From the sequence record SRR22947725_415: a DNA stretch of 39,521 nucleotides. The stretch is one strand, 5' to 3'. Below, piece by piece: positions 28,985-32,499 of this stretch (position 1 is the first letter of the stretch; each line of letters opens with the position of its first letter). A model generated the notes under the pieces. The model searched no databases and had not been told where the DNA came from. It saw nothing but the letters and a program-made list of their open reading frames with translations. The translations under genes were made by a program, and so were the position numbers.

Positions 28985-29593
28985 CTAGAGTTTACCTTTA
29001 AAGGCCTGTACGGCGTTGCCTCTTTCCAAACGATAATGCTCTAGACGGCGTTCTGAGTTCTCTTGTTGCCTTATAGTTTCACCAAGGCCTTCAACTTCTA
29101 GGCGCAATCTTTTAAGAGCTAATTGTTTATTTTGAAGCTGAGAACGCTCCGCTGAACAACTAATAGACTCACCGGAGGGTAAGTAAGTCACTCTGATTGC
29201 CGTCGATGACTTGTTTACATGCTGACCACCAGGGCCACTTGCACTGCGAAATGACTCAATCTTAACTTGAGACAAATCGAAGTCATCAACATCGCGCTGA
29301 GAACAAAAGCTGACCTTAACAAACCAATTTTGACGCTTGTGATATGGGCGAAAAGGACTTTTACCACACCAGGCAATAGTCCCTTCCCAGGCTTGCCGCA
29401 AAGAATCTGCGGCGTCACCTTTACATGACAGGCTTAAAGACTTAAAGCACTTACTGGCTCCACCATCTTCTTTATCAATTATCTCAACAACTACACCCTG
29501 CTGAGCGAAAGCTGTCATCAACTTTTGATAAACATGCCAGACGACCCTTTGGCACTCAAGCGGACCTTGACCAGAGGAAATTTGAATGAGCAT
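28985..29593 (-). CDS. prfH: Peptide chain release factor H
   Basis: LQISSGQGP.EC-type start, WEGTI.W...SPFRP.HKRQNWF, intact GPGGQHVNK, ERSQ.QN; lacks RF1/RF2 domain 1; directly follows rtcB. Confidence 0.93.
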   Translation of the reverse strand: MLIQISSGQGPLECQRVVWHVYQKLMTAFAQQGVVVEIIDKEDGGASKCFKSLSLSCKGDAADSLRQAWEGTIAWCGKSPFRPYHKRQNWFVKVSFCSQRDVDDFDLSQVKIESFRSASGPGGQHVNKSSTAIRVTYLPSGESISCSAERSQLQNKQLALKRLRLEVEGLGETIRQQENSERRLEHYRLERGNAVQAFKGKL

Positions 29594-29594
29594 A

Positions 29595-30707
29595 TTATTT
29601 CCTCTTAGTCTTATAAGTAATCAAAGGCTTCAAAATGGCCACAACTTTAATGACACCAAAGTTCACCATATCGTCTATGACAACATCGATGTCTTTATAT
29701 GCCTGAGGCGCTTCTTCAAAAAGCAGATCTTTATTCTCACAAATAACACTACTTCCCAAAGAGGTTTGCTGAAGATCTTTCACCGAGAACTTCATCCGAA
29801 AGCGCTGACGACAATCATGTCGATGATACTTACGACCTGCACCATGGGCTAAAGAATAGCAATTTTCTTCTTGCTTACCCAACGGCTTAACGATATAGCT
29901 GTAAGAACCTCGTGAACCTGGAATAAGCACTAAACTGCTATCCGATGGGGCCGCACCTTTGCGGTGTAACCAACCATCTCCACAAGCCGTAACTGTATTG
30001 TGACACATGTCCACTATACCTGTACCTGAGGCGTGAATAGAGCTCAAAAAGCGCCGCGCGATCAAGGCTCGATTCGCTCGAGTCCACTTCACCGCAAAGT
30101 CATGCTTTATCAAATAAGACTTAAACTCTGGCATATCTTCAGATAAGCCGTCTGCACCAAATTTTTCGACATGACTGCGAAGAACTAATTGCCCAAGGCC
30201 ACGAGAACCACTGTGGACCATCAACTGTAGAAAAGATTTACTTAAACCAAACTCTGAACAAGCTTCTTCATCAACGACCTGATGAATCTGCTGCAATTCC
30301 GCGAAGTGGTTACCACCCCCTACAGTTCCTAAGGCATCATCCCATTCATCAAGCTCAAACTTATCAATAAAAGCCTGACGATCGCCACTCCAAGGAGTGT
30401 CCATATCAACTATTTTCTTTACCCATTTGTCGCGACGAATCTTTTTAGTTTTGAGATCAGTCTGCCAAAGGCCCATCCCGCAACCTATATCGCCACCCAC
30501 TAAATAAGGGTATATTATATTTTCTGAATAAAAGGCAGCGCCGATGGGATTACCTCTCCCTGGGTGCAAGTCTGGCATGCCAACTACCTTTTTCATACCG
30601 GGTAACTTTGCGGTACTATGGAGTTGTTCGACAGACTTTCCTTCTATCCAATTTTGTTTTGACGCCATAACTGAGACGTCACAAGAATTAATTTTGATAG
30701 TATTCAA
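29595..30707 (-). CDS. rtcB: RtcB-family RNA ligase, PrfH-coupled type (RtcB2)
   Basis: MPDLHPG.G.PIG, GGDIGCG, GT.GGGNHF.E, VHSGSRG, HN, HRKGA, IPGSRG, AHGAGR, EEAP.AYK; TTG start with GGAAG RBS 8 nt upstream. Confidence 0.93.
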   Translation of the reverse strand: MNTIKINSCDVSVMASKQNWIEGKSVEQLHSTAKLPGMKKVVGMPDLHPGRGNPIGAAFYSENIIYPYLVGGDIGCGMGLWQTDLKTKKIRRDKWVKKIVDMDTPWSGDRQAFIDKFELDEWDDALGTVGGGNHFAELQQIHQVVDEEACSEFGLSKSFLQLMVHSGSRGLGQLVLRSHVEKFGADGLSEDMPEFKSYLIKHDFAVKWTRANRALIARRFLSSIHASGTGIVDMCHNTVTACGDGWLHRKGAAPSDSSLVLIPGSRGSYSYIVKPLGKQEENCYSLAHGAGRKYHRHDCRQRFRMKFSVKDLQQTSLGSSVICENKDLLFEEAPQAYKDIDVVIDDMVNFGVIKVVAILKPLITYKTKRK

Positions 30708-30715
30708 AACGTAAT

Positions 30716-30763
30716 CTTCCGATAAAATTAAAATGTAAAAAATGAAATAAAATAAGTCGGAAG
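30716..30763 (-). promoter_or_regulatory. Anti-SD/SD stem sequestering the rtcB2 ribosome-binding site
   Basis: On the mRNA, CUUCCGA (30763-30757) pairs with UCGGAAG (30722-30716, containing the SD) around a 34-nt U-rich loop. Confidence 0.6.
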
Positions 30764-30821
30764 GCTAACTGGAAGACGGAGCAGGGATCACCCTAAAGAT
30801 AGAACATGAACACAAGACTGC

Positions 30822-30857
30822 TTAGCAGTTAACCTCTGTTGGTGTGTAGTGTTGCAT
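30822..30857 (-). CDS. Leader peptide (uORF) MQHYTPTEVNC of the rtcB2-prfH operon; in-frame extension to 30765 on readthrough
   Basis: AAGGAG SD 7 nt before ATG 30857; TAA at 30824-30822; frame continues AVLCSCSIFRVIPAPSSS to TAG 30767-30765. Confidence 0.7.
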   Translation of the reverse strand: MQHYTPTEVNC

Positions 30858-30885
30858 GTTGTTTCTCCTTGATTGAATTTCTTAA

Positions 30886-30913
30886 ATGATAAACAAAAAT
30901 TTTACTGATGCAA
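30886..30913 (-). promoter_or_regulatory. Candidate sigma-70 promoter for leader-rtcB2-prfH
   Basis: TTGCAT-N16-TATCAT on the minus strand, between the sulfatase terminator and the uORF SD. Confidence 0.55.
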
Positions 30914-30925
30914 GAGGCCAGAAAA

Positions 30926-30959
30926 TAAAAAAGCAGAGTAATTTTAAAAATGACTCTGC
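30926..30959 (-). terminator. Intrinsic terminator of the sulfatase gene
   Basis: GCAGAGT...ACTCTGC hairpin plus T-tract on the minus strand. Confidence 0.75.
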
Positions 30960-30981
30960 CTTAAATTCTCGAAGTCAAAAA

Positions 30982-32499
30982 CTATCTTGTTGGAATACTT
31001 CTACCTGAACCCCTATACTGCTTTAAAAGAGTCTCCATAGCTTTCACCTTTTCGGGGTACTTCTCAAAAAGGTTATTTCTTTGGCTAAGGTCTTCCTTCA
31101 AATTAAATAGCAGTCCCGTCTCAGTCTTCTTGAGTTTCTTATAGCCACTCTTCTCATAAAACCATGAAGGCGCCCCTGAATGCTCTCCTGAGTAAGTATT
31201 GAGGTAAACCCAGTCTCCCTGTCGCAGGGCATATCGATTTTCAAAAGTATTTTGTACTGTTGCTTCACGCAATGGCTTTTTATAATCTTCACCCTTTAAT
31301 ACTGGTAGTAAATTATAACTATCAACCGCAGCTTCATTGGGTAATTTATAATCAACAATTGCTGCCACTGTGCCCATGATATCCACCTGATTAATCACTT
31401 CATCTGAAACGACGCCAGGCTTAATTTTACCCGGCCACTTAACGATAAATGGTACGCGGTGCCCCCCTTCCCAGATATCTCTTTTTAAGCCGCGAAGTTC
31501 TCCCATACTGACATGATTAAACTTACGAGTTCTTTCAAACGCATATTTTTCCGGACCATTATCTGCAGAAAAAATCACCAGTGTGTTCTCTTCTAAACCA
31601 TTAGCTTTTAAAGCATCAAAAATCTGACCTGCTATAAAGTCTGACTGAAAGACAAAATCACCATAAGGGCCCGCCTCTGTCTTGCCATCAAATTCATCAT
31701 TTGGAATGATCGGCGCATGGGGTGAAGGTAAAGCAAAATAAAGAAAGAATGGCTTATCTTTAGATTGGCGATTAATAAACTCTACAGATTTTTCACCCAG
31801 AGTTGGTAGGACGTCATACGGGTTCCAATCTTTTACCATAGGACCTGGGCGAAACTCCCAACCGCCCTCTTTAGTCTTCATCCCTTTAAGGTCAAGCATC
31901 TCAGTGGGTGCTTCTGTGACTTTATCATTTTCAACCCAGCAATAGGGCGGGAAATTTATCGTTCCATCGCCAAAGTAATAATCAAAACCTTGGTCGAGTG
32001 GTCCACCTGGGATCGGCTTACTCCAGTCAAAAGCATCTGGACCCCACACCTTCTTTTTTTTCTTGCCAACTACTTCAGCAGTGGCTCCCGGTTTCTTAAC
32101 GGGATTCCAATCCCAGCCCAAGTGCCATTTGCCAATCGCAGCCGTGTGGTAGCCCTTGGCTTTCAACATACGCGGTAAAGTCATCTCTCCCGGCTTAAAA
32201 AACGATGGTCCAAAAGAATTAACAATACTATGCTGGCGACGCCAATGATAATTACCGGTCAATAAGGCATAACGACTGGGAGAACATATACCTGAAGAGC
32301 TATGGCCATCTGTGAAGCGCATCCCTTCTGAGGCAAGCTTATCCAAACTCGGTGTTTTAATTTTTGAATGTGGATTTTGGCAAGACATATCGCCATGGCC
32401 CATATCATCCGCATAGATAATCACAATATTAGGTTTATCCGCGGCAAACAAGCTAACACATAACAGGGCGAAAATTACCGATAAAATACATACTTTCAA
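30982..32499 (-). CDS. Arylsulfatase (S1 formylglycine-dependent, Cys-type), secreted
   Basis: [41 protein letters not shown]; probable TTG start at 32499 after GGAG. Confidence 0.95.

Follow-up and report, generated by a model that had tools for sequence, protein, structure and literature searches.

A candidate leader-peptide attenuator ahead of the rtcB2-prfH ribosome repair operon of a Lentisphaerales-like bacterium

Introduction

Translational attenuators of the ermC and cat type mask the Shine-Dalgarno sequence (SD) of the regulated gene by hairpin formation. When a ribosome is arrested on a short open reading frame (ORF) further upstream, the leader re-pairs and the SD becomes exposed. 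Here we deal with a leader that may follow a comparable logic. It occupies positions 30708..30913, minus strand, of a 39,521-nucleotide stretch of DNA from sequence record SRR22947725_415 (the whole stretch is hereafter called the window) and precedes rtcB2 and prfH, which code for an RNA ligase of the RtcB family and for peptide chain release factor H, respectively. A closely comparable leader, PA5471.1, a sensor of ribosome stalling, belongs to the armZ-PA5470 operon of Pseudomonas aeruginosa, and its primary study is reportedly that of Morita et al. in 2009. PA5471 (ArmZ) is a member of an RtcB-related family, the PRK09588 cluster, and PA5470 is a release factor gene (prfH) in the same operon; the 13-residue leader peptide PA5471.1, encoded ~250 bp upstream, couples expression to ribosome disruption, and Escherichia coli ykfJ is inducible by 4-azaleucine (PMC3516279, a review of MexXY). 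According to three further articles, a ribosome stalled on the PA5471.1 leader is proposed to block a terminator, that is, to act by transcription attenuation, and ArmZ increases when the leader is deleted or its third codon is changed to amber (PMC3884212, PMC12057347, PMC13041342).

In the MexXY literature, leader-peptide control of armZ is treated as peculiar to that efflux system (PMC3884212, PMC12057347, PMC13041342). Our literature search found no paper describing such a leader outside Pseudomonas, and the texts on RtcB2/PrfH repair (PMC1586002, PMC9223846, PMC9304027, a 2025 preprint and PMC13166195) contain neither "leader" nor "uORF" and leave the regulation of the operon undiscussed. 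A first, sequence-only reading of the window had proposed that ribosomes missing the stop codon of a short leader ORF switch on rtcB2, and had mentioned a conserved short leader of prfH operons. The latter corresponds to the PA5471.1 system, and the broader idea that the leader reports on the state of translation matches the experimentally studied armZ-PA5470 operon.

Results

An SD-led leader ORF and a predicted SD-sequestering helix precede rtcB2

In our judgement, the stretch examined probably comprises the promoter and the ~180-nucleotide (nt) 5' leader with which a Lentisphaerales-like bacterium controls its rtcB2-prfH operon, the leader acting as a leader-peptide attenuator switched by ribosome stalling. 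Along the minus strand, a promoter-like site (30886..30913, with TTGCAT at 30913-30908, a 16-nt spacer and TATCAT at 30891-30886) is followed by the SD AAGGAG (30865..30870), 7 nt 5' of the ATG of the leader ORF (30822..30857), which comprises 11 codons (MQHYTPTEVNC) and a UAA stop located 114 nt upstream of the UUG start of rtcB2. As in leaders of the PA5471.1 type, this short SD-led ORF lies 100-250 nt upstream of the gene that it precedes, on the same strand and directly 5' of a PRK09588 ligase gene followed by prfH. Beyond the UAA, the frame remains open for 18 codons (AVLCSCSIFRVIPAPSSS) up to a TAG at 30767-30765. Just downstream, the anti-SD CUUCCGA (30763-30757) can pair with UCGGAAG (30722-30716), which contains the rtcB2 SD. 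The resulting helix P3 (30716..30763, inverted repeat I8) is a perfect 7-nt complement enclosing a 34-nt A/U-rich loop, is predicted in the minimum free energy (MFE) fold with a probability of ~0.97, and is identical in the close relative described below. All the elements listed in the sequence-only reading are thus present at the minus-strand coordinates that it gave, including the stem that it expected, and its view of the region as a regulatory leader of the rtcB2-prfH operon with a real SD-led upstream ORF (uORF) and an SD-sequestering stem is supported.

The leader should have its own promoter region, since a terminator-like hairpin followed by a T-run (30930..30962, minus strand, inverted repeat I1) ends the upstream gene, identified as a sulfatase gene by the Pfam-type annotation of the window proteins, and so delimits the leader unit on its 5' side. 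A simple promoter consensus scan did not call the 30886..30913 site because TTGCAT agrees with the -35 consensus at three of six positions only. A counterpart occurs in the close relative (TTGCAA-N16-TATCAT), and TTGCAA/T-N17-TAnnAT precedes the leaders of enterobacterial rtcB2 loci. Rfam yielded nothing at the gathering score for window positions 30300-31300, the best score being 19.5 bits against a cut-off of 78, and no match for seven related loci.

The leader is more conserved than the gene that it precedes

The closest relative among the matches listed is a single locus, labelled both L001 and L081, whose RtcB2 is 75% identical to that of the window. From the -35 box to the start codon, 177 of 205 positions are identical (86%), as against 34 of 77 (44%) upstream of the -35 box, where the similarity starts, and 71% in the rtcB2 coding sequence (47% at third codon positions). 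In other words, the leader is more conserved than the coding sequence that it precedes. The leader ORF of the relative, MTQHTQTEVNC, keeps an unchanged SD, the ATG, 11 codons and the UAA despite changes in codons 2-6. The 19 nt following its stop codon are identical to those of the window, after which a 1-nt indel shifts the frame, so that the conserved GGUGAUCCCUG is read GGU GAU CCC UGA and the extension ends at 13 codons, ~60 nt before the anti-SD. The variable middle of this leader (positions 2376-2436 of L001) is a tandem repeat, (TGATCCC) x 8.7, with 100% matches; the corresponding part of the window (30757-30792) shows two to three degenerate copies of a 7-nt unit of the TGATCCC type.

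These differences bear directly on the mechanism first proposed for the locus, by which ribosomes missing the UAA would run through the Pro-rich extension, stall near RVIPAP/UAG, cover the anti-SD and free the rtcB2 SD. In the window, 18 codons of this frame are indeed open, with only 1 nt between its end and the anti-SD, and equilibrium folding predicts that full opening of P3 requires a ribosome physically reaching it. Nevertheless, alignment with the relative upheld only the uORF, the UAA and the P3 stem, and not the succession of uORF, stop and extension frame, which is disrupted there by the indel and by an intervening repeat whose 7-nt unit is not divisible by three. Because the nucleotides are conserved whereas the frame and the peptide are not, neither the RVIPAP peptide nor the UAG can be regarded as a functional coding feature. 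The UAG lies instead within an arm of a helix, P2 (see below), and in this arm (CAGUUAGCC) an A/G difference from the relative retains pairing, as U-G in the window and U-A in the relative. When the 114-nt spacer was shuffled 5000 times, the extension was open over at least 18 codons in 2343 cases (47%); the frame is thus no longer than expected by chance and lacks the marks of a functional readthrough extension. No comparable extension frame is seen in the other leader groups; the spacers of L095/L096 and of the L097 type, for example, are different. Moreover, the increase in expression caused by the early amber codon in the P. aeruginosa leader fits stalling or occupancy and not readthrough. 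Altogether, we regard a readthrough sensor as extremely improbable.

As for other sequences close to the window, its closest RtcB2 proteins (P0001-P0008) are 68-83% identical to its own, a metagenome scan for rtcB2 gave nothing above 56% identity, and low-depth contigs from four of nine sequencing runs that match part of the window are identical to it, without variation. Short contigs from several marine metagenome runs match the A/U-rich loop of P3 (30718-30755) with 4-5 mismatches; they probably reflect low-complexity cross-matching from other organisms rather than variants of the locus.

Leader ORFs recur upstream of rtcB2 in distant bacteria

We collected 177 rtcB2 loci among the matches listed, 178 with the window, and recognized the N-terminal anchor motif of the protein in 174 of the 178. 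Dropping identical upstream regions and loci with less than 300 nt of upstream sequence left 137 unique loci, in which we searched for uORFs defined by an ATG start, a preceding SD, a length of 6-30 codons and a position between 400 and 45 nt ahead of the anchor codon. Such SD-led uORFs were present on the sense strand of 80 of the 137 loci, compared with 10 on the antisense strand and 15 in shuffled sequences, and they sit 60-260 nt ahead of the rtcB2 start. Members of one subgroup share the length and frame of the ORF. The uORFs include ones of 13-15 codons in Gamma- and Betaproteobacteria, 11 in the Lentisphaera-like L095 and L096, 19 in the GC-rich Lentisphaeria L097, L083 and L084, and 14-15 in six Verrucomicrobiota loci. 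At every uORF-bearing locus of the Planctomycetes-Verrucomicrobia-Chlamydiae (PVC) group, a prfH match directly follows rtcB2, except in L097, where it is ~1 kb away. Anti-SD:SD pairings of other sequence recur in L086, L091, L085 and L095. The gene rtcB2 itself was found in 7 of 351 genomes of the class searched and in 13 of 401 of the phylum sample.

Proteobacterial rtcB2 leaders (E. coli, Superficieibacter, Pseudoalteromonas, Gallionellaceae and others) show the same order of parts as the window: a promoter with a TTGCAA-type -35 box, an SD, the leader ORF, a helix between the 3' part of this ORF and a downstream box, an anti-SD, a U-rich tract and then the SD with the start codon. The parts from the right arm of the helix to the start codon follow one another in this same order in the window. 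We aligned 22 of the 30 extracted proteobacterial leaders, namely those of at most 190 nt (alignment A3). In these, a helix between GCAGRN, within the leader ORF, and a downstream NYCUGC is 98.5% paired with two covarying pairs, a covariation score that none of 500 shuffles matched. The pairing of the pre-SD region with the same GCAG box reaches 88%, and that of the anti-SD CCAnUUCC with GGAAUUGG 78.6%. An invariant UUGCAG, read in different frames of the leader ORF (as LCR or FAG), and CUGCC boxes occur in L126, L067, L043, L052, L045 and others. No Rfam family matches the proteobacterial rtcB2 leaders; judging from the alignment, they look like a widespread, uncurated cis-regulatory RNA.

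Compared with the window, these leaders are of unrelated sequence, have 13-15 instead of 11 leader codons, use an ATG start for rtcB2, and have two helices, alpha and beta, that share the GCAG box; the UUGCAG and CUGCC boxes are absent from the window leader, and sequence similarity does not link the two groups. In E. coli K-12 (L179, NC_000913.3), a 15-codon leader ORF and a CUGCC/anti-SD box can be seen upstream of the ykfJ/prfH pseudogenes (positions 1150-1500), with ~115 extra bases between the leader boxes and the SD/start compared with L126. The RefSeq rows inspected for the proteobacterial loci, E. coli K-12 included, annotate no leader ORF.

Competing helices respond to the position of a modelled ribosome

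Two further helices involve the leader ORF. Helix P1 (30803..30860, inverted repeat I2) joins AACAUGCAACAC (30860-30849) with GUGUUCAUGUU (30813-30803), so that the leader ORF lies within it and the AUG of this ORF is masked; it is predicted in the MFE fold with a probability of 0.97 and is kept in the relative, where an A-U pair becomes G-U at one end. The alternative helix P2 (30761..30836, inverted repeat I5, 10 nt, 90% complementary) joins GAGGUUAACUG (30836-30826, leader codons 8-11) with CAGUUAGCCUU (30771-30761), with a duplex energy of -19.6 kcal/mol. Its right arm, CAGUUAACCUU in the relative with pairing retained, overlaps the anti-SD by 3 nt and contains the UAG of the extension. 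The leader also contains a variable, C-rich and G-poor spacer (30757..30792; A4 C14 G6 T10 over 34 nt) that begins with the conserved GGUGAUCC (30792-30785). This motif, presumably complementary to the 3' tail of 16S rRNA, might act with the 7-nt repeat as an SD-like site for internal ribosome binding or, as a C-rich site, serve Rho loading.

We modelled the ribosome as a footprint covering -12 to +15 nt about each P-site codon in constrained equilibrium folding. P2 is absent from the unconstrained MFE structure and becomes the MFE structure once the footprint sits on leader codons 1-3. With the P-site at these codons, P1 is predicted to fall from 0.97 to 0, P2 to rise from 0 to 0.61-0.96 and P3 to decrease from 0.97 to 0.43-0.65, whereas with the footprint at codon 4 or beyond P3 stays at 0.95 or above. 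In the models, P3 together with a small hairpin, P4, over the start codon would provide the SD sequestration typical of ermC/cat-type translational attenuators.

The same leader ORF might instead govern premature transcription termination, by P2 and the interrupted U-tract or by Rho acting on the C-rich spacer, which would be prevented by a ribosome stalled close to the stop codon of the ORF or on its 3' half; P3 and the UUG would then only set basal translation. Such transcription attenuation is what the literature proposes for the Pseudomonas counterpart. In addition, U-rich sequence lies within 5 nt of the P2 right arm, P2 is the MFE structure of the nascent transcript once P1 is blocked (-20.4 kcal/mol), and the spacer remains C-rich in both leaders (C14/G6 in 34 nt in the window, the TGATCCC repeat in the relative) without its sequence being kept. 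Some Verrucomicrobiota leaders (L092) carry a GC-rich hairpin followed by a U-run, and in the E. coli-type leader a footprint placed on codon 7 or further along eliminates the helix equivalent to P2. However, a terminator scan of the window leader found no canonical terminator, its sole hit being a hairpin of 5 bp that spans the stop codon of the leader ORF; the terminator hairpin (segments 3:4) of the PA5471.1 type therefore has no regular equivalent here, P2 plus the interrupted U-tract being non-canonical, with a ~55-nt loop, A-U and G-U pairs at the base and a 5-nt gap before the U-tract. The C-rich stretch of the window is also short. Furthermore, transcripts escaping termination would still have a hidden SD because P3 is predicted at ~0.97 regardless, from codon 4 onward. 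We therefore find transcription attenuation somewhat unlikely for this leader.

Against chance, 7 nt fully complementary to part of the last 20 nt were present in 369 of 5000 shuffles, so that such a match is by itself only mildly unusual. The z-score of the whole-leader fold is -1.68, and the RNAduplex z-scores of P2 (beta, -1.7) and P3 (gamma, -1.3) in the window are noisy relative to shuffles and not taken as proof. Since most elements are weak against chance when taken singly, the weight of the evidence rests on conservation.

The downstream genes and the weak start codon of rtcB2

The gene rtcB2 (29595..30707, minus strand) encodes a PrfH-coupled RNA ligase of the RtcB family of 370 amino acids (Pfam PF01139; NCBIfam PRK09588, 524.6 bits, and TIGR03073), and prfH (28985..29593, minus strand) a peptide chain release factor H of 202 amino acids (Pfam RF-1; NCBIfam TIGR03072, 204 bits). 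The ATG of prfH lies 1 nt past the TAA stop of rtcB2 (window positions 29593-29600), and an AGAGGA within the final rtcB2 codons is compatible with translational coupling of the two genes.

The UUG start of rtcB2 (30707-30705) is embedded in the small A/U hairpin P4 (30690..30710, minus strand), with an unpaired probability of 0.00-0.02. It is preferred to an ATG 13 codons further in, as homologues start with MNT and a Leu replaces the internal Met, the PRK09588 profile alignment begins at residue 2 of the window RtcB2, and the DNA of the relatives' rtcB2 loci agrees with it. A UUG start with an SD ~9 nt upstream is found in the window, in L081 and in six Verrucomicrobiota loci. Starts other than ATG are predicted in 13 of 18 PVC rtcB2 loci (the window, L081, L085, L086, L091-L097, L083 and L084); the proteobacterial loci use ATG. 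The non-ATG starts include a predicted ATT in L095 and L096, immediately preceded by a stop codon in the same frame, and ATA, ATT and ATC in L097, L083 and L084, which lack any ATG, GTG or TTG ahead of the invariant AS..W-I-E motif. L092 has an extra in-frame ATG upstream, without an SD. We dropped the idea that these non-canonical starts are the main story, as a fidelity gate of the initiation factor 3 type, since most of the family uses ATG.

Sequestration and weak starts could also mean that there is no switch at all, the SD hairpin and the UUG keeping expression constitutively low and the uORF being incidental or protecting the mRNA. The folding models predict P3 and P4 in all states, and the frequency of non-ATG starts in the PVC loci would fit selection for low basal expression. 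Yet rtcB2 loci show a strong enrichment of leader ORFs, with length and frame kept within subgroups, the leader is better conserved than the coding sequence, and inducibility is reported for the related operons of Pseudomonas and E. coli. Constitutive low expression thus seems very unlikely.

Discussion

From the layout, its conservation and the folding models, we infer that the leader ORF is translated, that P1, P2 and P3 act as alternative states of a switch and that the output is translational, the latter probably so because both the SD and the UUG start are sequestered. In the attenuator that we propose, the 11-codon ORF with its strong SD would be translated just after the promoter, and the position of the ribosome would select among the competing helices. 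In the resting RNA, P1 would close over the leader ORF while the rtcB2 SD and its weak UUG are masked by P3 and the small hairpin, allowing little synthesis of ligase and PrfH. Induction would occur when a ribosome is parked early on the leader ORF, for example one that is inhibited by an antibiotic or damaged and that initiates but does not elongate. The parked ribosome would block P1 and let the 3' half of the leader ORF pair with the segment overlapping the anti-SD (P2). P3 would then be weakened and intact ribosomes could start on rtcB2, prfH following through translational coupling.

Several points weigh against this scheme. In the folding models, the SD is at least 80% paired at every ribosome position and its unpaired fraction reaches only 0.12-0.19 with the footprint on codons 1-3, because it re-pairs with rtcB2 codons 9-12. 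P3 by itself is modest, with 7 bp around a 34-nt loop, and the switch is weak in the relative, in which P2 does not exceed 0.33 and P3 does not fall below 0.60. P1, P2 and P3 are beyond a covariation test, as the two leaders of this type that were compared have nearly identical helices. The single RNA-library contig available spans positions 30560-30692 only, inside rtcB2, and is uninformative on the leader. The Pseudomonas model itself is transcriptional and is described as in need of confirmation (PMC3884212, PMC12057347, PMC13041342). Finally, an nhmmer search with the A3 profile found none of 19 PVC targets, the window included, at E<=10, compared with 92 matches elsewhere among the 158 targets. 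For this reason we do not claim homology with the characterized proteobacterial leader, although judging from its position and architecture the window leader would work like the PA5471.1 system.

A more speculative extension of the proposed attenuator is that the leader directly senses ribosomes damaged in the decoding centre, which would initiate on the strong SD, be unable to decode the next codons and park at codons 1-3. We consider such direct sensing unlikely. If true, it would entail that the repair operon is made only when, and about in proportion as, the ribosome pool is damaged, that the weak non-AUG starts of rtcB2 in PVC bacteria (UUG, AUU, AUA and AUC) are deliberate, and that leader-ORF control is ancestral for RtcB2-PrfH across phyla, P. 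aeruginosa having later wired it to MexXY. Be that as it may, Proteobacteria as well as Verrucomicrobiota and Lentisphaeria have similar leader ORFs and SD-masking helices ahead of rtcB2-prfH, which suggests that producing the repair kit upon ribosome stalling is a general and old regulatory logic. For the window, the unsupported readthrough sensor is replaced by a variant of a known leader-peptide mechanism.

Two known systems frame this variant. PA5471.1 resembles the window leader in having a short SD-led ORF (13 versus 11 codons) on the same transcript as a PRK09588 ligase gene and then prfH, with structured RNA in between. The window leader differs in having no similarity to the profile of the proteobacterial leaders, in which Pseudomonas loci are included, and no canonical terminator, in the sequestration of its SD and UUG start, and in that no link to MexZ/MexXY is expected. 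The attenuators of the ermC/cat type similarly hold the SD in a hairpin, and their four-segment logic would match P1, P2 and P3 as modelled. Unlike them, the window leader has no evident drug-specific arrest peptide, its switch, as modelled, depends on the ribosome stalling as early as codons 1-3 and has little strength in the relative, and the genes that it precedes repair ribosomes instead of modifying a drug target.

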